From the IMG/VR virus record IMGVR_UViG_3300025816_000004: DNA of 51,059 nt, one strand, 5' to 3'. Positions within the stretch are counted from its first letter, which is position 1. Every line of letters starts with the position of its first letter. Below the pieces are notes generated by a model, which worked only from the letters and a program-made list of their open reading frames with translations, was not told the DNA's origin and did no database searches. This DNA is from a virus. This document shows positions 17,501 to 51,059 of this stretch, piece by piece. The position numbers and the translations under genes were made by a program.

Positions 17501-19539
17501 AATTAAACGATAATACCAATTTCTATGGAGTAACTTTGTCTCCTAAAATGAAACAAAGAAGAGTAGATCAATTAGCTGAAATAGGTATTGACAGTAATCA
17601 AGCTTTAATAGCTTATAAAAGTAATGTAGATGCTGATGGTATTTTTAATGAACAAGCTTTTAGAGATAGTACTTTTTTTGAAGAGCAAGTTTCTCCTGCT
17701 TCTGCTTTATTTGCTAGAGAAATTATTCTTAATCCTACAGCTGCAGAAGGAAGTAAACCTTTATGGATGAGTGGCTACTGGGCGCAACTATTTGTACAGT
17801 TTGCAGGTTATCCTACAGCATTTAATAATACAGTACTTAAAGGTATGGCAAGAAATATGGTAAGAGATCCTGTTGCTAATGTTCCTAAAATTATGGGAGC
17901 AACAACTATGATGACAGGGGTAGCTGTTATGACTAATGCTATTAGAAGTGAAGGCAGAAGTTTACAAGAAGAAGATAGTAAAGTTATGGGAGAAGCTATA
18001 AGAAGATGGGGTGGATTTGGGCCTTATGAATATATACATAAATATCTTGAAGGGGCTAAGTATGGCGGTAGAGAAACAGCTGCAGCAATTAAAGCTCCAT
18101 TAGGGCCTCTTCCTGCAGACCTTATAGATTCTGTAGTTACAGATAAAAGTATTCCTGAAATTCTTGGAACTAATATTCCTTTTTATTCTGCTCTTAAAAA
18201 GAATGAGAAAATTTTTGGAGTAATTCCTTCTAGAAATGATATTAAAAAATTTACTAGGAATTTAGGACAAGGAGTTGTATATGATAAAGATTCTGTAGAG
18301 TCTTTTGCAGAAGGTGGAGAAGTTACACAAAACAACAATAATATAACAGATGTTTATAAGTTTTTAACTAGAGATCAAAATGAATATGGAACTACAGACA
18401 CAACTCCTATTGCTTTGCATACAGAAGATACGTTACCTACATTAGATATTAAAGATACATTCTACATAGACTTAAAAGGCTTTACAGTTGCAGATAAACT
18501 AGAAGCATACCGCAAGTCAGATACTATTGGAGTTCCTGTATACAAAGCTAAAGGCAGAGGAAACGTAGCAGGTAAAATTAAATTTCATAAGTTATTAGAA
18601 TTAGATATTGATAATACAGAACTAGAAACTGTACAAGAAAGTATTAACAAAAATAAAGATGATATAATATATACAGATGATTTTATTGCTAATGAAATTA
18701 TTAAAGAAACAAACTATCAACTTACTCTTAGAGATGATGTTCTTAATGATGATCCTGATAGGACTGCTAATAAAGAAAAATTAATTACTAAAAGTAAAAG
18801 TTTTTTAATAAAGAATGAAATACTTAAACTAGGCTATGATGCTATAAAGACTAAAGAGGGCTATACATTACTTAGAGAGAACCAGTTTTTAGCTACAGAA
18901 ATACTAGATAGAAGACAACAAGTATTCTTAGGTGGTTTATTAAAAAGAGCTAGAGGATTTTTAGGCGCACTTTTAAGAAGAGCTAAAGGTGCAGCAAACA
19001 GGGCTGAAACAAAAATGGAAGATATACAATTTCAAACACAAGACGCTGTATTAATAGGAGGAGCTGCACAAGCTGTTCCTAGAACTTTAGTAACTGATGA
19101 AATAATATTACCTAAACTATTTAAAGATAAGTTAAGAGATAGTGAAAGCTCTGGAAATTATGAAGCTGTAAATAGTCTAGGATATATGGGTGCGTATCAA
19201 TTTGGTAAGAGTAGATTAAAAGATTACAAAGATAGATATAATACATCTTTTACTAATGAAGAATTTTTAGCAGATAAAAAATTACAAGATGAAGTATTTG
19301 ATTGGCATGTTAGTGATATTAGAAAAGGAATTAAAAGAAATAAACTGGATCAATATATTGGTCAAAAAATTAATGGAGTAGCTATTACAGAACCAGGAAT
19401 GGTTGGTGTTGCTCATTTAGGAGGCTTTACAGGTATGAAACAGTTTATTAGAAATTTAGGAGAAGGAGATAAGCAAGATGCTTATGGTACTAAACTTTCT
19501 GATTATCTAGATAAATTTAAAAATACTAGATTTGAGTAA
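14596..19539 (+). CDS. Giant internal virion protein (1647 aa) with a C-terminal lysozyme-like / lytic transglycosylase-like motif (T7 gp16 analogue)
   Basis: C-terminal motif DSESSGNYEAVNSLGYMGAYQFGKSRL (E-S-x-G-N ... G-x-Y-Q-F) typical of transglycosylase-like folds; internal hydrophobic Gly/Ala segments. Confidence 0.65.
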   Translation: MSMTWQQFQQNNPSMFKNLGETQEEKERRQTLENQEKTFSAIKISNNRPDYTAVSGYNDFSNTVNQEINQKKNVYDDPFIQRILDDNTSSNLDRERKQSASFYSDTEYSMNDLDQDQVYQEVGERYLRAIGSDENLYENLRDAKYSIGDAVALAMKSDNWSDQVKADYKYLKTVFDNSNTTGAKHILQATKDIAIDLVFDLPNLLAVPFIVSTGGVGGIALSAASRLGATQAFRQSAKKMALQYNKNKPLRTASIGLTEGAYDAGVIGVSNQISDVQTGIREKFSTPEAIGMTAVGAVIGGGAAAGLVKLGDVIAKRQLNKFAEETGLRTEDIADAKPEQIKKWREDLRKTDKIIGAITGKATTPFKEFAKGSPTIQEFLTNIRYDAMRRLMDKGPEEIAKTTFGAAVSKRQAEYTLLMQKAMGNLTGLNGKIDPVDEADILYLLSRDINLNNHVKLVKFNKKGLNTYEVIEPVIIDGRRMSDEVMKAAKGLDESFNKIFEDGFGIETVGGTVSKFDLFKNISQRVANYFPRHWSIDAIKEQRDVLENLLINSRHTDMRLERMTDEGIEELNLDDGVTRYTIDFDADGKMIPDSVARLDDEARKFVNVNELTIDQKVFGDVINPKTNKPYLERYNGFEDMALESLKKKYNLTDLQVNVSTKKNLLALRPELADEFNLAARKFKAQVIVQDLINKADPKYKNLKGSMPKLGSNTFMKERAFDDIADTDLQKYGFVNTDVQSVVTDYALSMGKTIEKARYFGRSEREFNKRFIEPIIDELDEFGQKYNREELVDNLTKLYKVTAGVEDTVPAYVGKFGRNAVDALKVSQQLAHLGFATVSSLTEPLIALSRADLPDAINLSKSFAVAGSKFAKKAFVTAGDRIANLTGKRTRLFKQLDDEDLYDTYQAGLSLENSVMDRIEGMYGEGLQSGTAKKISNWFFNLNGLTPWTQAVQMGAYKFGQQKVLRILNELNDNTNFYGVTLSPKMKQRRVDQLAEIGIDSNQALIAYKSNVDADGIFNEQAFRDSTFFEEQVSPASALFAREIILNPTAAEGSKPLWMSGYWAQLFVQFAGYPTAFNNTVLKGMARNMVRDPVANVPKIMGATTMMTGVAVMTNAIRSEGRSLQEEDSKVMGEAIRRWGGFGPYEYIHKYLEGAKYGGRETAAAIKAPLGPLPADLIDSVVTDKSIPEILGTNIPFYSALKKNEKIFGVIPSRNDIKKFTRNLGQGVVYDKDSVESFAEGGEVTQNNNNITDVYKFLTRDQNEYGTTDTTPIALHTEDTLPTLDIKDTFYIDLKGFTVADKLEAYRKSDTIGVPVYKAKGRGNVAGKIKFHKLLELDIDNTELETVQESINKNKDDIIYTDDFIANEIIKETNYQLTLRDDVLNDDPDRTANKEKLITKSKSFLIKNEILKLGYDAIKTKEGYTLLRENQFLATEILDRRQQVFLGGLLKRARGFLGALLRRAKGAANRAETKMEDIQFQTQDAVLIGGAAQAVPRTLVTDEIILPKLFKDKLRDSESSGNYEAVNSLGYMGAYQFGKSRLKDYKDRYNTSFTNEEFLADKKLQDEVFDWHVSDIRKGIKRNKLDQYIGQKINGVAITEPGMVGVAHLGGFTGMKQFIRNLGEGDKQDAYGTKLSDYLDKFKNTRFE

Positions 19540-19543
19540 AGAT

Positions 19544-19801
19544 ATGTATTCAGAAGATATACTTATTATGTACCATGAAGATGACTTAGATAGAGCGTAT
19601 CGCATAGATTGCAAGATGCGAACTAAACAAGATTTAGCTTGGTTAAAAAGAGAAGAGTTTAGAAAAGTTTATGAAGAGCTTTTAGAAGCTCATTTAAAGG
19701 GGATGCCAGAATTACCATTAGAAATAATTATGGATTCTGTAGATAGAATACTAGAAAGTAATATACGTTTTAGTCCTGATGAACTAACTAGAGGCAAGTA
19801 G
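19544..19801 (+). CDS. Hypothetical protein (85 aa)
   Basis: ATG 19544 preferred over the TTG 19532 given in the ORF track. Confidence 0.7.
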   Translation: MYSEDILIMYHEDDLDRAYRIDCKMRTKQDLAWLKREEFRKVYEELLEAHLKGMPELPLEIIMDSVDRILESNIRFSPDELTRGK

Positions 19802-19802
19802 A

Positions 19803-20288
19803 ATGAAATTTGGAATGATAAAAAACTTAATAGGCGCAGTAGCTCCAACAATCGGTACAGCCCTGGGTGGGCCTATGGGCAATATGGCAGCTAATATGAT
19901 TGCTGAAACTTTAGGATGTGAGCCTACACCTAAGAAAATAGAGCAAGCAGTACAAGCAGCCACACCAGAACAACTTGCAGAGATTAAAAAGATTGATGCA
20001 GACTTTGAAGTAAAAATGAAAGAGTTAGATGTAGATCTATATGATCTTCAAACTAAAGACATACAAGATGCAAGAGGGAAATTTTCTAAAGATTGGACAT
20101 CTAGAATCATGGGATTAGTTGTTGTTGGTGGCTTTATGGGTTACATTTTTCTAATTACTCTGCAGCCTCCAGAGCAGAACAGCGAAGCGTTGATCAACTT
20201 AGTGCTAGGTTATCTTGGTGGTCTTGCAAGTGCTATTATATCTTTTTATTTTGGAGCGTCTAATACTGGAAGTAAAGACGATAAGTAA
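19803..20288 (+). CDS. Holin, 3-TM GTA-type holin-like (161 aa)
   Basis: Gly-rich N-terminal amphipathic segment, central helical linker, D-x-x-D-A-R then hydrophobic helices (IMGLVVVGGFMGYIFLI, LVLGYLGGLASAIISFYF); architecture of the 'holin of 3TMs' family. Confidence 0.5.
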   Translation: MKFGMIKNLIGAVAPTIGTALGGPMGNMAANMIAETLGCEPTPKKIEQAVQAATPEQLAEIKKIDADFEVKMKELDVDLYDLQTKDIQDARGKFSKDWTSRIMGLVVVGGFMGYIFLITLQPPEQNSEALINLVLGYLGGLASAIISFYFGASNTGSKDDK

Positions 20289-20638
20289 TGGAAGACATTA
20301 TAAATCTGATTAATCAGGTAGGCTTTCCAGTTGCATCTGCATTAGGTTTAGGTTTCTTTATATGGAAACTTATTAACCGCATTATTGATGGTATGGAAGC
20401 TAAGATAGATGTAGTTGATGAAAAAGTAGATGCTAGTCTTAACGCAATGGAAGAAAGACTAAGCACTAAACTTGATGCTCAATACGGAATAATTGTAGCT
20501 TTAATTGATAGGGTACGCGCACTTGATAATCAAACTATACGTCAAGATGTTTTACTAAAAACATTACTTGGTATTCCTAATTTAATTGAAATAGATAAGG
20601 TGGCAAAAGCAGACCGTGAAGATCAAAGAAAAGATTAA
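20288..20638 (+). CDS. N-terminally membrane-anchored coiled-coil protein (116 aa); i-spanin-like architecture
   Basis: TM helix (FPVASALGLGFFIWKLI) followed by a helical charged region; TAATG coupling to the holin. Confidence 0.5.
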   Translation: MEDIINLINQVGFPVASALGLGFFIWKLINRIIDGMEAKIDVVDEKVDASLNAMEERLSTKLDAQYGIIVALIDRVRALDNQTIRQDVLLKTLLGIPNLIEIDKVAKADREDQRKD

Positions 20639-21071
20639 AATTAACCTAATAGCTTTTTTTATTTGGCAAGGAGATATCTTTGCAGACGAATTGTTATTTA
20701 AATTTAAAAGTCCTAGCTTTTCTGGAGTAAATACTAGCAGTCACTATCTTACAATAGAGAACCAAGAAGCTACAAGAAAGCAAGCTATTAAAGAAGAGAT
20801 AGAAGCATATCAAGATCAGTTAGCTAGAGAAGCAGATAACACTACACTTGCAAGGTTTATAAGAAATTTAGAAAGCAGAATCTACGCACAATTATCTAGG
20901 CAAATGGTAGAACAATTATTTGGTGAGACACCACAAACATCAGGATCACTTGAGCTAGAAGGAAATACTATTGAATACAAAGTTGAAAATGAACTTATCA
21001 CGCTTACTATTACAGACGAAAATGGGGGGCAGACCAGTATTACTGTGCCTATTGGTACTTTTACTTTCTAG
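20616..21071 (+). CDS. csgF: CsgF-like curli assembly protein (151 aa, GTG start, Sec signal peptide)
   Basis: Signal peptide ..LIAFFIWQGDIFA; mature N-terminus ELLFKFKSPSFSG resembles E. coli CsgF TMTFQFRNPNFGG; C-terminal ITLTITDENGGQTSITVP resembles LQLNVTDRKTGQTSTIQV (recalled from memory). Confidence 0.7.
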   Translation: MKIKEKIKINLIAFFIWQGDIFADELLFKFKSPSFSGVNTSSHYLTIENQEATRKQAIKEEIEAYQDQLAREADNTTLARFIRNLESRIYAQLSRQMVEQLFGETPQTSGSLELEGNTIEYKVENELITLTITDENGGQTSITVPIGTFTF

Positions 21072-21831
21072 TTGTGCATCTAAAGATTTATTAAACGGAA
21101 GCGGTATACCTAATGTTGTAATAAAAAGTTCTTCTGTATTAGAACTACAGTCTGAAGAATTAAAACAACTTCCTGCAGCAATACGAAAACCAGTAATAGC
21201 TATATACCCTAATAGCTTTAGAGATCACACAGGACAGCGCAGAAGTAATGGGCAGTTTGCCTTGTTCAGTACTGCAATTACGCAGGCCCCTGAAGCATTT
21301 CTTATCAGAGCTTTAAAACAAGCTGCAAAGGGAAAGTTTTTTCAAGTTGCAGAGCGCGTAGGATTAGATTCACTTACTAAAGAAAGACAACTTATACGTT
21401 CAACAAGAGAAACATTTGAAGAGGACAGCAGCGTCAAACCTCTTTTACTAGCAGGACTCTTGATTCAGGGAGGAGTGTTATCGTATGATTCTAATATAAA
21501 ATCTGGAGGCGCAGGAGCAAGACTGTTAGGTCTAGGAAGTTCTAAACAGTATAGAGAAGATTTAATTACCATATCTTTGAGATTAGTTTCTGTCTCAACA
21601 GGAGAAATATTAATAGAAGTATTAGTATCTAAAACAGTTACATCAGCAGGTCTTTCGCAGGATGTGTTTAGATTTTTAGATGAAGGCAGAAGACTTATTG
21701 AAGTAGAAGGAGGAGTTGCAGAGAACGAAAGTACCTCTATAGCTCTACAACAGGCAATAGAAGAAGGTGTTTTACAAATAATTAAAATAGGAATAACCAG
21801 GGGGTATTGGGAATATGAAGAAATTAATTAG
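21022..21831 (+). CDS. csgG: CsgG-like outer-membrane lipoprotein / curli secretion channel (269 aa)
   Basis: Lipobox LLSS|C. YDSNIKSGGAGARLLGLGSSKQYREDLITISLRLVSVSTGEIL resembles E. coli CsgG YESNVKSGGVGARYFGIGADTQYQLDQIAVNLRVVNVSTGEIL. Also DVFRFLD vs GVFRFID and ITRGYWEY vs IDRGLWDL. Confidence 0.88.
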   Translation: MGGRPVLLCLLVLLLSSCASKDLLNGSGIPNVVIKSSSVLELQSEELKQLPAAIRKPVIAIYPNSFRDHTGQRRSNGQFALFSTAITQAPEAFLIRALKQAAKGKFFQVAERVGLDSLTKERQLIRSTRETFEEDSSVKPLLLAGLLIQGGVLSYDSNIKSGGAGARLLGLGSSKQYREDLITISLRLVSVSTGEILIEVLVSKTVTSAGLSQDVFRFLDEGRRLIEVEGGVAENESTSIALQQAIEEGVLQIIKIGITRGYWEYEEIN

Positions 21832-22522
21832 CTTGTTAATGCTTGTTAGCATTTCCGCAACAGCTTCAGACAACGAAATCTTTGTAGATCAAGTAGGAGC
21901 TACAGCTAATATAGATCTTGAACAGTTAGGTAGTGGTAACATTATAGGTGGTCTTACTGCAGTAGCAGGTTCAATGACAGCCTTGGATCTTGACGGAACA
22001 TCCATGACGTTAGACATAAATCAGATTGGTGATGCTAACAAATTTCTAGGAGATATGTATGCAGATTCATACACAGGTTACTTTAATTTTGATGGCGATA
22101 CTAACACGTTCACATCTAAAATGGATCCAACCAATTCGTTTGGTGCAGATGGTTCAAACGTTAATGTCCAAGTGACAGGTAGTACCAACACCTTTACACT
22201 TGATCTAGCTACTAGTGCTTTAGCAAGTAGCGCAGATATAGATTGGACTGTGCAAGGTTCTAGTAATACTATTAATGCTGACATTGATGTGGATTCAGCT
22301 ACTAATTATATGAATATAGATGGCGATAGTAATACAGTAAATTATGATGGAGATGGTTATGCCCAGGGATATTTTCACCTTACACACACAGGAAGTTCAA
22401 GAGCCTTTGATGTGGATCAACAAAGCACACAAGATTCAGATTGGGTTAAAGTTACTTCTACTGGTTCTAACGGTACAGTTTGCATTAACCAAGACGATCA
22501 AGGCACAAGCGTTGGATGTTAA
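21815..22522 (+). CDS. Secreted curlin-repeat-like protein (235 aa), candidate fibre subunit (CsgA/CsgB analogue)
   Basis: Signal peptide MKKLISLLMLVSISATA|SD; about 8-9 imperfect repeats with a h-x-h-x-(Q/D)-x-G-x-x-N core (VDQVGATAN, EQLGSGN, INQIGDAN, VQVTGSTN, TVQGSSN, NIDGDSN); directly downstream of csgG. Confidence 0.5.
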   Translation: MKKLISLLMLVSISATASDNEIFVDQVGATANIDLEQLGSGNIIGGLTAVAGSMTALDLDGTSMTLDINQIGDANKFLGDMYADSYTGYFNFDGDTNTFTSKMDPTNSFGADGSNVNVQVTGSTNTFTLDLATSALASSADIDWTVQGSSNTINADIDVDSATNYMNIDGDSNTVNYDGDGYAQGYFHLTHTGSSRAFDVDQQSTQDSDWVKVTSTGSNGTVCINQDDQGTSVGC

Positions 22523-23540
22523 TATTGGAAACATTACACAATTAAACGGAAATACCAGAGTAGTAAGAGATAAACCTTATAAGAGCGAGATTGATTTCTC
22601 GCTTAACTCTATGGACAAACTAGAAACTGCACAAGGTAGAATGGGTGTTACGTTTAGAGATGATACAACAATACGTTTAACAGAACACAGCAATGTGATT
22701 ATTGATGAGTTTGTATTTGATGTCAATCCTAGCAAGTCAAGTATGGCTCTTAATTTTGTAAAAGGAACCGGGAGATTTATATCCAGTAAGAAGCCACGCA
22801 TACCTAAAGATAATATTACAATCAGGACACACGCGGCAACCATTGGAATAAGGGGGACAGACTTCACAATAACTGTAAAAGAAACTGGTGAAGCTTTGGT
22901 AATACTTTTGCCTGATGAGTTTGGTAATGCAAGTGGGGAGATAACTGTTGATACGGCCTTAGGTCAGGTAATACTTAACAAAGCTTATGAGGCTACTACA
23001 GTCTATAATTTTGAAACAGCACCTACTCCTGCTGTAGTATTAGACCTAACACTAGATATGATTGACAATATGCTTATTGTAAATCCTCCAGAGACTAAAG
23101 AGATTCAAACAGATGAATCAGTTACTGCTGTAGATAATCTATTAGATGTAGACTTTTTAGAGTTTGATGGACTTGAAGAAGATGCTTTAGCTAAAGATGA
23201 TTTAGAATATACAGAGCTTGATGTAGATTATTTGGCAGGTAACTTTCTAGAAGATCTCTTAGACATTATTCAAGAAGTAGATGAGTTAGGTAAAGCTGAG
23301 AAAGCTTTGTCAGCAGACGGAGTTAAAGGAACAGCAGTAGGTTATGATAAGGATACGCAGATCAGTACCTTTGTTACTGACACAAACTTAAAGTTCTTAA
23401 GAGCTATAGAAGATACACTAGAGATGAGCGTAGACAAATCAGGTTCTTACAATATAAGAATAGAACAAGAAGGAAAAGTAAATCAAATAACTACCAACGG
23501 AGGGAGTAGTTCTACTATTACTATTAAACAAGGAAGTTAA
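22410..23540 (+). CDS. Secreted FecR-domain protein with an acidic C-terminal half (376 aa)
   Basis: NGNTRVVRDKPY..LNSMDKLETAQGRMGVTFRDDTTIRLTEHSNVIIDEF fits the FecR beta-domain pattern. ATG 22410 gives a signal-peptide-like N-terminus (..LLLLVLTVQFALTKTIKAQA|LD). The start is uncertain (alternative TTG near 22514). Confidence 0.55.
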   Translation: MWINKAHKIQIGLKLLLLVLTVQFALTKTIKAQALDVNIGNITQLNGNTRVVRDKPYKSEIDFSLNSMDKLETAQGRMGVTFRDDTTIRLTEHSNVIIDEFVFDVNPSKSSMALNFVKGTGRFISSKKPRIPKDNITIRTHAATIGIRGTDFTITVKETGEALVILLPDEFGNASGEITVDTALGQVILNKAYEATTVYNFETAPTPAVVLDLTLDMIDNMLIVNPPETKEIQTDESVTAVDNLLDVDFLEFDGLEEDALAKDDLEYTELDVDYLAGNFLEDLLDIIQEVDELGKAEKALSADGVKGTAVGYDKDTQISTFVTDTNLKFLRAIEDTLEMSVDKSGSYNIRIEQEGKVNQITTNGGSSSTITIKQGS

Positions 23541-24232
23541 AAATTATAAAAGTTTCTATTTATAGGCACTATATTTTTTTCTTCTAATAAAGGAACAGAT
23601 ATAGATATTCTTTTAGATAAGGGTATAGCAGAATGGCCTATTCCTTTTGGAATGTAAAGCATATCTCCTGCAGTTAATTTAAAAGTTTCTACATCTTTTG
23701 TATTGTTTTCAAAACTATTACAGACTGTCCATTGTACTGAGCCAATGCAATGTACAAGAAAATTATCATCATGATCTATATGTGGGCGAAAAGATTTTCC
23801 TTTAGAGTTTCTACTACAATAAAAATGAGCATCACATGCGCCTTTAAACTCTGTCTCTATAGCTTCTGCTATATCTGAAATACTTTGAGTAAGCATAGAT
23901 GCTTTAGTTAGTATAATAGATCCATTGTTATTCCAAAGAGTATGTAAATATTTTTTATCAAAGTAATCTTTTTTAGCCCATGAAGTTTTAGATCCTTGAT
24001 AAAGATTATTTTTTTCCATACAAAGTTTTTTACCATTGGGTAGTATAGCTTGTATGCCTGCTACTGCTCTATCATTATTAATGTAATCAGAAAGTCTATG
24101 CCAAGAAATAATATTACTGTACATAAATCTTCTAAATCTATTTCCTTTAATAACACAGAATTTTTTATCTTTATATTCTGTTTTAAATTCCTCAACAGAC
24201 ATAGGATCAATTAAACTTTTAAAGTCTATCAC
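23537..24232 (-). CDS. JmjC/cupin-type 2-oxoglutarate-Fe(II) oxygenase (231 aa)
   Basis: H-x-D ... H triad: RPHIDHDDNFLVHCIGSVQW ... DMLYIPKGIGHSAIP. Confidence 0.6.
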   Translation of the reverse strand: MIDFKSLIDPMSVEEFKTEYKDKKFCVIKGNRFRRFMYSNIISWHRLSDYINNDRAVAGIQAILPNGKKLCMEKNNLYQGSKTSWAKKDYFDKKYLHTLWNNNGSIILTKASMLTQSISDIAEAIETEFKGACDAHFYCSRNSKGKSFRPHIDHDDNFLVHCIGSVQWTVCNSFENNTKDVETFKLTAGDMLYIPKGIGHSAIPLSKRISISVPLLEEKNIVPINRNFYNF

Positions 24233-24459
24233 TATGCTTTTCGCCCATTTAAATCCGCTTCTATTTTATTATGTACATTATCTAATTCTCTGGTCGCGCT
24301 TCGCATTGTGGACTGTAACAGGTTAAAATCTTCTTTAGTTAAATGTTTTTTTAATTGTGTAATGTCTGTACTTGTACGTTCAGTAATTAACTGTCCTTGT
24401 TTATTAAACAAAATTGCATACGCTAACAACTTTGCTTCTTCCCTTTTTATTCTTGCCAT
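24232..24459 (-). CDS. Hypothetical protein (75 aa)
   Basis: ORF tightly coupled between RNR and the oxygenase (ATGA/TAATG-type junctions). Confidence 0.7.
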   Translation of the reverse strand: MARIKREEAKLLAYAILFNKQGQLITERTSTDITQLKKHLTKEDFNLLQSTMRSATRELDNVHNKIEADLNGRKA

Positions 24460-26378
24460 TAAATTATCTCACAAGTTCCTGCACTACATGCAAGCTCTTT
24501 AGTATTTTCAGTATTATCTTCTGTCTCATACTCTGTTATCTTAGACCAATCTACTATGTCTGTAGTTTTCTTTAACCATTTTCTATATTCATTATAAGTT
24601 ATCTCTTGATAAGGAGCTTGTTTATATGAATGATCTGAGTAAGGTAAGAAAGAGATACCAGATGTTTCATCTAGATTTTTATAAACCCAAGCTCCTACAT
24701 CTAATTGTTCTTCTTCTTTAACTGAGATTGTTACAGAAGGTTTATGCTCACACCATTTATCTTGATAGTCCTTCCAGATATTTAAGTGTTCAATAGCTGA
24801 TATATCTTTTCTAGTCAGCGCACCTTTAGGACTCTTCATAGGAAAGTAAAAGACATAAGTGTGTTCTGGTTTAGTAAGATCATCTTCATGATAGACTCCT
24901 GCATCTACCATTAATTTTGCTAAAGGATCTTTCTTATCTGCTCTGACGGTGCGAAGGTAGTATGGGCTATGTCTAGTGTGAATACCAGAAGCACTATTGA
25001 CCAGTTGACTTACTGTTCCGCTAGGTTTAACGCAGGTAATTGCTGCGGATTGGGGGATACCTAGTTTCTTAGCCCATACTTTATTAACGGATATTGACAG
25101 ATCTTTTAACTCTTGTAAATCTATCTTGCCATTTATCATATTAACATTGTCCATTATACCTGTAAGTGATACACCAAGCAATGACTCTTCTAAAGTATTG
25201 TGTTTCCATTTACTTGTCAGGTATCTAAAATTTGTTAGCGTAGCCTGGAATGTACCAAGTATAGTCGCTGCTTCTGTTTTAGTTTTTAAAGTATTAATAT
25301 CATCATCTTCTCTAACTACAACCTCAGTAAGATTACAGAATTGTTTATTGCGTAGAATAATTTCACTACAAGGATTACAACCAAAGTCTTTATAGTCTTC
25401 TCGCCTACCATTCTTTGATGCTTGTTTCTCTGCAGCTTGACGATTAAAGATACCACGCTCACCACTTTTAGATTCATACAAAGATAACCATTCACGCATA
25501 AAAGTACCTACGTCTGGTTTTTCTGTATAGGCTACAGAGTTATTAGCTAATGCTCTTTGCTGATTATCTTCCCACCAAGCACCTGACTTAGCATTACGCA
25601 TGCGACTGTCTGAGAGATTGCTAAGAGAGATTAAAGCACTTCGCCTTACTCCACCTACCACTACAACTTCTGCAATCTTACACATCAAATCATGACAGTT
25701 TAATGAATGAAGTTTTCTTTGTTGTTTCTCCATTGCATCTTTAAAAATATTAATAGTAAAATCAAACAACTCTTCAAGAGGATCTGGGCCACTTGCTCTG
25801 CCTCCAAAAGTTTTAAGTCTAGCACCATAAGGTCTAATGTTTGAAACATCCCATGTAGGAATCTGTCCTGCATATAGTAAAGACATAAGTTCTTTGTAGG
25901 ACTTTGCCCATCCAATCTTAGAATCAGCTACTTTAATAACAGTATCTGTAGGAAATAAATCCTCTGGTAAATCTGGTAATTGATTTATGTATTGACGTTC
26001 AACGCTAAACCCTACCCCTGTACCACACATAAGTATGTATAATGTTTCATCAAAAGCTCTAGGTGTATCAACAGCTACATAGCTACAGTTAAATCCTGCT
26101 ACGTTATCTTTTTCTAAAGCATTACCTGCTGACATCAATGCTCTCATACTTGGCATAACATCTAATGACAACACAGCTTTTTGTAATGTAGATCTAATTA
26201 CAGCATAGTCAACTTTATTTAATTTAGTATTTTGTACTATTTGTTTTCCAAAAAAATCAAAGTATCTTGTTACAGTTTCTTCCCAAGTTTCTCTACGTTG
26301 ATGTTCTTCATTCCATCTAGCATATCTGCTTAGATGTATAAACTGTTGATAGTTAGTAGGTAGTTCAGTAGTGTTCAT
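24459..26378 (-). CDS. nrdJ: Class II (adenosylcobalamin-dependent) ribonucleotide reductase (639 aa)
   Basis: NCSYVAVDTPRAFDETLYILMCGTGVGFSVE; active-site GCNPCSEIILRNKQFCNLTEV; C-terminal redox pair CSAGTCEII. Confidence 0.85.
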   Translation of the reverse strand: MNTTELPTNYQQFIHLSRYARWNEEHQRRETWEETVTRYFDFFGKQIVQNTKLNKVDYAVIRSTLQKAVLSLDVMPSMRALMSAGNALEKDNVAGFNCSYVAVDTPRAFDETLYILMCGTGVGFSVERQYINQLPDLPEDLFPTDTVIKVADSKIGWAKSYKELMSLLYAGQIPTWDVSNIRPYGARLKTFGGRASGPDPLEELFDFTINIFKDAMEKQQRKLHSLNCHDLMCKIAEVVVVGGVRRSALISLSNLSDSRMRNAKSGAWWEDNQQRALANNSVAYTEKPDVGTFMREWLSLYESKSGERGIFNRQAAEKQASKNGRREDYKDFGCNPCSEIILRNKQFCNLTEVVVREDDDINTLKTKTEAATILGTFQATLTNFRYLTSKWKHNTLEESLLGVSLTGIMDNVNMINGKIDLQELKDLSISVNKVWAKKLGIPQSAAITCVKPSGTVSQLVNSASGIHTRHSPYYLRTVRADKKDPLAKLMVDAGVYHEDDLTKPEHTYVFYFPMKSPKGALTRKDISAIEHLNIWKDYQDKWCEHKPSVTISVKEEEQLDVGAWVYKNLDETSGISFLPYSDHSYKQAPYQEITYNEYRKWLKKTTDIVDWSKITEYETEDNTENTKELACSAGTCEII

Positions 26379-50343: not shown

Positions 50344-51059
50344 TGGCTACAACATATTTAACACTTACTAACGAAGTTCTTAGAGAATTAAATGAAGTAC
50401 AATTAACTTCTGCAAATTTTTCAAGTTCTGTAGGAATACAAGCTTTTGTAAGAGAAGCAATTAATAGAGCGTTAAATGACATAGCTAATGAAGAACCTCA
50501 ATTACCTTTCTTTGCTGCCGCAGCTAGCGGAGAAACAGATCCTTTTTACGGTAATGTAACTGTAGCAACCGTAGCAGGAACAAGATGGTACACACTTAAA
50601 GCAGGAAGCTCTAGTATAACTACTGATTATTCTTCTATAGATTGGGATGATTTTTATATTACAACAATTAGTGTATCAGGAGAATCCGCACCCTATGTAT
50701 CTAAAGGTTTAAGATTTATATCTTTAACAGATTGGAGAAGATATTTAAGAGATCAAGAAAACGCAGATGATGCAGATACTCAGAATCATGGAGAGCCTCA
50801 GTTTGTTATTCGTAGTCCAGACCATAGAAAATTTGGTCTTAGTCCTATCCCAGACAAAGTATACAATGTTCATTTCTATGCTTACTCTGCACCTACAGAA
50901 CTTTCTGCTCATGGAGATACTATAGTCTTTCCAGATCAATATGCTTCTGTAATCATGGCTAGAACAAGATACTACGTTCATCAGTTTAAAGAAAACTTAC
51001 AACAAGCAGCTTTTGCATTAGATGATTATAAGAAAGGTATGAAACGTATGAAATCTAAT
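50343..51059 (+). CDS. 5' part of the junction-spanning 255-aa virion protein (continues at 128..178 after removing the duplicated 127 nt)
   Basis: ATG 50343; open to the end of the window; in frame with 2..178. Confidence 0.6.
   Translation, partial: MATTYLTLTNEVLRELNEVQLTSANFSSSVGIQAFVREAINRALNDIANEEPQLPFFAAAASGETDPFYGNVTVATVAGTRWYTLKAGSSSITTDYSSIDWDDFYITTISVSGESAPYVSKGLRFISLTDWRRYLRDQENADDADTQNHGEPQFVIRSPDHRKFGLSPIPDKVYNVHFYAYSAPTELSAHGDTIVFPDQYASVIMARTRYYVHQFKENLQQAAFALDDYKKGMKRMKSN
50933..51059. repeat. Terminal direct repeat, copy 2 (identical to 1..127)
   Basis: Same 127-nt string as the window start. Confidence 0.95.

Follow-up and report, generated by a model that had tools for sequence, protein, structure and literature searches.

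A probable curlin-family substrate in a phage-borne type VIII secretion module of a marine pelagiphage-like podovirus genome

A curlin-like protein and its phage-borne secretion module

The IMG/VR virus record IMGVR_UViG_3300025816_000004 (51,059 nucleotides; hereafter the window) encodes a 235-amino-acid (aa) protein (21815..22522; all coordinates refer to the plus strand unless stated otherwise) that is probably a curlin-family substrate of the CsgA/CsgB type, belonging to a phage-borne type VIII secretion module with the gene order p116-CsgF-CsgG-curlin-FecR-like. The open reading frame (ORF) had been singled out in an original prediction, made from the sequence letters, as a candidate secreted fibre subunit with degenerate curlin-type repeats and two C-terminal cysteines, and it exists exactly as delimited there, with an ATG start. 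The strongest evidence for the curlin assignment, namely the adjacency of csgF and csgG homologues, was not cited in that prediction. Granted that the protein is a curlin-family substrate, we regard the chances that it would form a true fibre as about evenly balanced.

Signal peptide, repeats and cysteines

The protein begins with a Sec-type signal peptide (residues 1-17, 21815..21865; MKKLISLLMLVSISATA), which was read from the sequence and displays the n/h/c layout of charge, hydrophobic core and A-x-A, with alanines at positions -3 and -1. The predicted cut falls after ATA (ATA/SD), as originally proposed. When 32 members of the family sharing 27-62% identity are aligned, the start of the mature protein is seen to be kept as DNEIY(I/V)DQ. 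This start leads into a curlin repeat of canonical form and full length (22 aa; residues 20-41, 21872..21937), as defined by Sleutel et al. 2023 (PMC10192328). In that definition, a repeat comprises motif a (N-$-Psi-$-Psi-$-Q), an arc of the form X-G-X-X, motif b and a second arc, with a total length of 23 +/- 5 aa. The corresponding segments of the window protein, NEIFVDQ (motif a), VGAT (arc 1), ANIDLEQ (motif b) and LGSG (arc 2), agree with it exactly, and the remainder of the protein fits the 'degenerate' class of the same authors. Conservation within the family also peaks in the canonical N-terminal repeat (mean information 2.5-2.75 bits), with Q26, Q37 and G39 being invariant along with N42 of the next unit.

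Downstream of it lie about seven degenerate strand-arc-strand units with arc insertions (residues 42-227, 21938..22495), which were delineated using the GxxN pattern, the conserved columns, the AlphaFold model and self-alignment. The arc-1 glycine and the motif-b asparagine of these units recur at residues 72-75, 94-97, 122-125, 148-151 and 170-173, and the last two units, in which the glutamine is retained, are marked by G193, Q202, I224 and Q226. In all, the invariant or near-invariant columns of the 32-member alignment are Q26, G28, Q37, G39, N42, G61, Q70, G72, N75, G94, N97, G122, G148, N151, G170, N173, G193, Q202, I224 and Q226, to which N125 may be added as a position conserved in at least 70% of the members. 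The GxxN pattern occurs seven times in the mature protein as against an expectation of 2.07 +/- 1.31 (P = 0.002; 20,000 shuffles), and comparison of the family profile with itself recovers off-diagonal matches at 97.7% (E 1.6e-12) and 94.8% probability (E 5e-8). The internal repeats are beyond what chance would produce.

All nine repeat strings quoted in the original prediction are present in the translation; its spacing of 20-27 aa between units needs correction, since the actual spacing ranges from 11 to 34 residues. Similarly, the signature (Q/D)-x-G-x-x-N that it ascribed to every unit stands in part: the arc glycine and the asparagine that follows it persist in the later units, but the full Q-x-G-x-x-N is intact in two units only, and the later units have lost most of the glutamine ladder positions while gaining arc insertions.

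The two C-terminal cysteines, C223 and C235 (C-I-N-Q-D-D-Q-G-T-S-V-G-C; 22481..22519), emerge from homologue comparison as a C-x11-C pair shared by all 120 close homologues compared (at least 66% identity). More distant subfamilies have the pair in a shifted (QC..GC) or different position, or lack it. Comparison of the two cysteine-bearing regions of the family alignment (residues ~104-114 and 221-235) finds proteins of the type seen in the phage HTVC008M with a pair in an internal loop, another clade with the QC..GC version and some subfamilies with no pair at all. The occurrence of cysteine pairs at differing places suggests that disulphide staples have been gained repeatedly and independently among the subfamilies. 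In the window protein, a C223-C235 disulphide, as predicted from the sequence, probably pins the C-terminal tail onto the last strand.

Homology to curlins

At the level of the family, homology to curlins is clear. The Pfam model Curlin_rpt (PF07012) is matched by 23 of the 32 members, with a best E of 2.1e-6, and is the only Pfam family common to most of them. When compared with solved curlins, the family profile matches 8c50 (E 9.1e-11) and E. coli CsgA (8enq; E 5.8e-4), with nothing else scoring comparably. Further, hhalign aligns the family with E. coli CsgA at 86.9% probability (E 4.2e-6), with the Q-x-G-x-x-N arcs in register; this match is independently backed by the profile match to 8enq. 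Family-level homology and the csgF-csgG context together support assignment of the protein to the curlin family, in its 'degenerate' repeat class, and bear out the curlin-type logic of the original prediction.

The family is compact and widespread in viral sequences from the sea. Approximately 3,050 homologues were recovered among metagenome-derived proteins, many of them from Tara or other marine samples, with names that are uninformative (mostly 'hypothetical protein') or lacking. They fall, at 50% identity and E <= 1e-3, into 255 clusters. Cellular relatives were judged from the representative search and the cluster names; among those clusters that were looked up there was no named cellular member, and a single match to an AHNAK repeat was spurious. 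The only deposited phage with a curlin homologue is the Pelagibacter myovirus HTVC008M, whose protein AGE60350 is 32.6% identical over 97% of the length (E 9e-13) and is annotated in GenBank KC465899 as 'curlin-associated protein / curlin minor subunit CsgB'.

Linkage to CsgF and CsgG

Homologues of both CsgF and CsgG are encoded directly upstream of the curlin gene, on the same strand and with overlapping or abutting ORFs. The CsgF homologue (20616..21071; phrog_35372) is a 151-aa protein with a signal peptide, which matches Pfam CsgF with an E of 2.3e-18 over profile positions 17-132 of 132. Its mature N-terminus, LLFKFKSPSFSGVN, resembles TFQFRNPNFGGNP, which we take to be the equivalent segment of E. 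coli CsgF. A phmmer search of the same protein against PDB sequences returned no curli match; the Pfam profile match stands. The CsgG homologue (20971..21831) corresponds to the outer-membrane lipoprotein channel, with a Pfam CsgG match at E 1.8e-45 and a lipobox (LLSSC). Its likely start is an internal ATG at either 20989 or 21022, and the end of the gene overlaps the start of the curlin gene by 17 nucleotides. Against the E. coli CsgG structures 3x2r/4uv3 it scores an E of 2e-42, with the FSTA segment of the constriction loop aligned. In the 80 IMG/VR loci, that is, the viral contigs retrieved with the curlin-like protein, the order p116-CsgF-CsgG-curlin-FecR is kept in every case wherever the contig extends.

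Predicted structure

An AlphaFold2 model based on a 45-sequence alignment (mean predicted local distance difference test score (pLDDT) 84, predicted TM score 0.80) presents the protein as an all-beta stack of strand-arc-strand units. Every conserved GxxN is placed in the model between two paired strands, so that there are two strands per unit; the pLDDT is low (59) at the last residues. Its best neighbours among predicted viral structures (BFVD) are phage proteins named 'Curlin associated' in UniProt, with a TM of 0.83, a root-mean-square deviation of 2.6 A and 28% identity.

Proposed mechanism and alternative explanations

By analogy with established curli biology, a scheme for the export and assembly of the protein can be put forward. 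The host Sec machinery would export the pre-protein, with the signal peptide being cut after ATA, and the unfolded chain would then cross the outer membrane through the phage CsgG lipoprotein channel, capped by CsgF. Outside the cell, the chain could fold into approximately 8-9 strand-arc-strand layers, with conserved glutamines and asparagines together with the arc glycines stabilising the stack. Polymerisation would proceed head to tail, yielding a surface fibre, via the open beta-edges of the canonical N-terminal repeat and of the Q-bearing units at the C-terminus. The N-terminal repeat being the most conserved, and the glutamines of the last two units being kept, is what would be expected of docking edges.

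Several observations weigh against this picture. In most units the Q ladder is gone and the arcs have long insertions, leaving a degenerate middle, and a C-terminal tail stapled by a disulphide could cap the end of the solenoid instead of leaving an open edge. The window protein taken alone has no match to Pfam Curlin_rpt at E <= 1 and scores 15.8 bits (E 0.01) against the NCBIfam CsgA equivalog model, for which the cut-off is 160; in this respect it is indeed far from E. coli curlin, as the original prediction had remarked. It is without an N22-type secretion segment, and CsgE, CsgC and a separate CsgB are, like CsgD, not present in the window, which has a single curlin gene. On the structural side, a Foldseek search of the model against the PDB yields a best E of 0.33 to generic beta-helices; these weak matches are parallel beta-helices, among them pectate lyases, tapirin and hemolysin A, and neither 8enq nor 8c50 is among the matches listed. 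The two-sheet curlin geometry is read from the strand pattern of the model rather than from its coordinates. The beta-solenoid logic invoked by the original prediction would be compatible with the all-beta strand-arc-strand model and its 'Curlin associated' neighbours, but does not emerge from the PDB search. With a solenoid this repetitive, we regard the PDB result as uninformative and do not count it as evidence for another fold. Finally, Buchholz et al. observed no clumping in cultures infected with the phage Melnitz, and none of the papers found reports an experimental test of fibre formation or secretion for any phage curlin.

Some of these points could be accommodated by a curlin-derived secreted beta-solenoid that does not polymerise, in which case a monomer would plug, gate or decorate the CsgG/CsgF pore and the job of the module would be pore-related, i.e., lysis timing, a pinholin- or secretin-like function, or solute uptake. 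This is the main rival, and we consider it unlikely. It would account for the degenerate repeats, the arc insertions and the loss of most Q-ladder residues, as well as for the clade-invariant C-terminal cysteine pair if this were to form a cap; it is also in keeping with the position of the module directly downstream of a 1647-aa virion protein with a lysozyme-like C-terminus and two small membrane proteins, one of which has a weak PHROG holin match (E 0.005). Moreover, Buchholz et al. proposed that CsgGF regulates lysis, in addition to seeing no clumping, and Zaragoza-Solas et al. raised the idea of macromolecule uptake. However, csgA/B are reportedly missing from the Melnitz genome, and the absence of clumping there may therefore not carry over. 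In every locus, the curlin gene has been kept alongside CsgF, a nucleation and anchoring factor that a bare pore would not need. The best-conserved segment is the canonical N-terminal repeat, as expected of a docking edge, and bacterial CsgAs of the degenerate class share the beta-solenoid architecture of other CsgA homologues (Sleutel et al., PMC10192328).

Resemblance by convergence, with the protein being an unrelated beta-helix adhesin or a low-complexity D/T/G/S/N-rich protein, appears very improbable. The missing Curlin_rpt match of the window protein itself, the weak and generic parallel beta-helices returned by Foldseek from the PDB and the biased composition (55% of the mature residues are D, T, G, S or N) would be compatible with it, but the family-level matches are specific to the curlins 8c50 and 8enq, none other being found at a comparable E, and Curlin_rpt is shared by most members to the exclusion of other Pfam families. 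The in-register alignment of the CsgA repeats, the presence of two rather than three strands per unit and the obligatory CsgG/CsgF linkage argue in the same direction. A system of the alphaproteobacterial holdfast-anchor (HfaA/HfaB/HfaD) type in place of curli is scarcely credible and was rejected. The original prediction had pointed to HfaA for comparison, HfaB is a relative of CsgG, and the window CsgG does match HfaB weakly (E 3.6e-4); yet its score for HfaB is 19.8 bits, with a cut-off of 300, versus 153.5 bits for CsgG. The searches returned no HfaA or HfaD family match, including none to HfaA for the curlin-like protein in NCBIfam. Further, a homologue of CsgF, a curli-specific component, is present in the window, and CsgF is not known to occur in hfa loci. 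The published phylogenies in which phage CsgG, CsgF and FecR fall nearest to alphaproteobacterial versions (PMC9599517) could be read in favour of a holdfast-type system. The reading of the protein as a CsgA/CsgB-type substrate of a phage curli module is the one that we favour.

The FecR-like gene and its overlap with the curlin gene

The curlin gene is followed by a gene for a predicted secreted FecR-domain protein (22410..23540; Pfam FecR E 7e-11; phrog_37870), the start of which is embedded in the curlin gene itself. Its signal peptide (MWINKAHKIQIGLKLLLLVLTVQFALTKTIKAQA/LDV), beginning at the ATG at 22410, is coded in another frame within the last ~37 curlin codons, such that 22410-22522 is dual-coding; in the FecR-like frame downstream of the curlin stop, both a start codon and a signal peptide are absent. 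The same arrangement is found in 60 of 60 distinct related podovirus-type sequences, usually with a start of the form M-[TI]-G-[LS]-[KR]-LL, and not in HTVC008M. Synonymous third-position diversity falls to 0.369 in the last 30 curlin codons, as compared with a gene mean of 0.478 and a minimum of 0.422 in the other 30-codon windows. The overprinting of a signal peptide on the last ~30-37 curlin codons in the podovirus lineage may couple the curlin and FecR-like genes translationally.

The FecR-like protein consists of the signal peptide, a FecR-type domain and a very acidic region, with neither a cytoplasmic anti-sigma domain nor a transmembrane segment. The published label of 'iron-dependent regulator' appears doubtful. 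Its nearest NCBIfam models, Leptospira Lsa33 and LipL45, are matched far below cut-off. The last 33 residues (SYNIRIEQEGKVNQITTNGGSSSTITIKQGS) can be read as 1.5 curlin repeats (SYNIRIEQ/EGKV/NQITTNG/GSSS/TITIKQGS; 23439..23537, from homologue alignment), in which the residues Q.GK.N....NGG..S.I.I.QG are invariant across 28 FecR-like homologues. Within the window proteome, the combined strand-QxGxxN motif is confined to the curlin-like protein and this C-terminus. Direct comparison with the curlin family gives weak scores, 4-15 bits with hmmsearch and 9% probability (E 0.0037) with hhalign, the alignment being in the expected register; homology of the tail to curlin repeats may hence be regarded as a lead only. 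An AlphaFold model of the protein, obtained from a shallow alignment (28 sequences, 61-95% identity), has a mean pLDDT of 43.6 and allows no conclusion on its fold.

These features open the tentative possibility that the FecR-like protein is a secreted structural partner of the curlin, namely a nucleator, anchor or tip that would act as a functional CsgB analogue, rather than an iron regulator. The suggestion follows from the lack of an anti-sigma or transmembrane part, the invariant IxIxQ-xGKxN-...-IxIKQG tail and the overprinted signal peptide, and the curlin solenoid could offer its open edge as a docking site for the tail repeat. Phage curli would in that event be fibres of two components, for which no bacterial counterpart has been described.

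The viral genome and the surroundings of the module

The viral origin of the window is confirmed by phage hallmark genes, with terminase, portal, major capsid protein and family-A DNA polymerase all being encoded according to protein annotation. Self-comparison reveals an exact 127-bp direct terminal repeat at 1-127 and 50933-51059, which indicates that the window is a complete genome of ~50.9 kb, either circularly assembled or terminally redundant. The GC content is 34.1%. The nearest cultured match of the capsid protein is the Pelagibacter podovirus HTVC115P (59.7%), together with HTVC104P and HTVC103P, and phages of the HMO-2011 type come next. By these sequence affinities, the genome is that of a pelagiphage-like podovirus of the marine SAR11 type. 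At the nucleotide level, megablast found no match to 19500-24500 in the phage collection, HTVC008M and Melnitz being reached by protein search only.

Directly upstream of the curli module lies the gene for the 1647-aa virion protein, which has a lysozyme-like C-terminus. Between it and csgF, within 19803-20638, there are genes for two membrane proteins of 161 and 116 aa. The latter, p116 (20288..20638), is a membrane-anchored coiled-coil protein with a weakly holin-like N-terminus (PHROG E 0.005); its position before csgF is conserved in HTVC008M and, where the contig is long enough, in almost all related loci. Although the p116 position was labelled 'histidine kinase' by Wittmers et al. 2022 (PMC9599517), neither the 116-aa nor the 161-aa protein has a kinase domain in Pfam, NCBIfam or PHROGs, and the label was not reproduced. 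Given their location downstream of the lysozyme-like virion protein, the two may be related to lysis rather than being histidine kinases. Across otherwise similar loci (L002-L081), the p116 homologues come in two forms, being either ~90-99% or only ~27% identical to that of the window, which hints at allelic replacement at this position.

On the other side of the module, a JmjC/cupin-type gene resembling 2-oxoglutarate (2OG)-oxygenases (23537-24232, minus strand) is convergent on the FecR-like gene, the two ORF ends sharing four bases (23537-23540). It stands where other modules have a second curlin gene and an adenylate cyclase. A scan of 19400-24600 for promoters and terminators produced counts equal to the shuffled expectation, and speaks neither for nor against an internal promoter.

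Functional implications

According to published work, the presumed host, SAR11, has no curli genes of its own. Phage curli modules would thereby equip this bacterium, the most abundant in the sea, with a system for secreting surface fibres that is missing from its own genome. Hypotheses published for the pay-off to the phage include aggregation of sibling cells ('sibling capture'), superinfection exclusion of rival phages, solute uptake via the pore and control of lysis timing; among these, macromolecule uptake was raised by Zaragoza-Solas et al. 2020 for the curli cluster of pelagimyophages, and a role in regulating lysis was proposed by Buchholz et al. for the csgGF of Melnitz. Viral curli proteins amount to ~0.1% of the assembled viral proteins in GOV2.0 (Wittmers et al. 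2022, PMC9599517), so that the function, whichever it proves to be, could matter for ocean carbon export and for host recombination.

A virus-encoded curlin of this kind is not new, as the gene class and the module are already known (Wittmers et al. 2022, mSystems, PMC9599517) and the window carries a minimal form of that module. The present analysis adds little to the 2022 description apart from three details, namely the cysteine pair specific to the clade, the dual-coding overlap and the resemblance of the FecR-like C-terminus to curlin repeats. In addition, the curlin was recognised from the raw sequence although curated models miss the window protein.

Comparison with known systems

The closest known counterpart is the type VIII secretion module described by Wittmers et al. 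2022 (PMC9599517) in nine podovirus genomes of the HTVC023P type, comprising HK, CsgF, CsgG, CsgA/B (there termed 'Curli repeat fiber') and FecR, with an optional second CsgA/B and an adenylate cyclase. That module was detected at all 65 GOV2 stations and found to be expressed in metatranscriptomes, and its function was discussed. The order is the same as in the window, with one or two small 'HK' genes followed by CsgF-CsgG-CsgA/B-FecR, and the phages are of the same genome type (~50-kb marine podoviruses) with the same marine metagenomic distribution. There is no essential difference between the two; the window represents the minimal form, without the second CsgA/B or the adenylate cyclase, and has the convergent JmjC-type oxygenase gene after FecR. 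The 147-kb genome of HTVC008M likewise shares the CsgF-CsgG-curlin-FecR-like order. Its curlin, however, lacks the C-terminal cysteine pair, ending instead in ..IIQRD and carrying a pair in an internal loop, and its FecR-like gene begins after the curlin stop, so that the dual-coding overlap of the window has no equivalent there.

With E. coli CsgA and CsgB (PF07012; 8enq), the window protein shares the Q-x-G-x-x-N arc, the logic of motif a and motif b, and the adjoining csgG and csgF. It differs from CsgA, which has five regular repeats of 22-23 aa and an N22 targeting segment, in its irregular spacing of 11-34 aa and in having no N22; further, E. coli possesses a pair of major and nucleator curlins, as opposed to the single curlin gene of the window. 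A further parallel is found in the bacterial CsgAs of the degenerate class, such as those of Sediminicola (A0A0S1S4K2) and Roseovarius indicus (A0A0T5PAS6) described by Sleutel et al. 2023 (PMC10192328). They share with the window protein a Sec signal and 8-10 strand-arc-strand layers, both of which are predicted in the latter, with missing N/Q ladder positions, arc insertions resulting in units of more than 23 aa and a half-repeat ending. Unlike these, the window protein is encoded by a virus and carries a candidate disulphide at its C-terminus.

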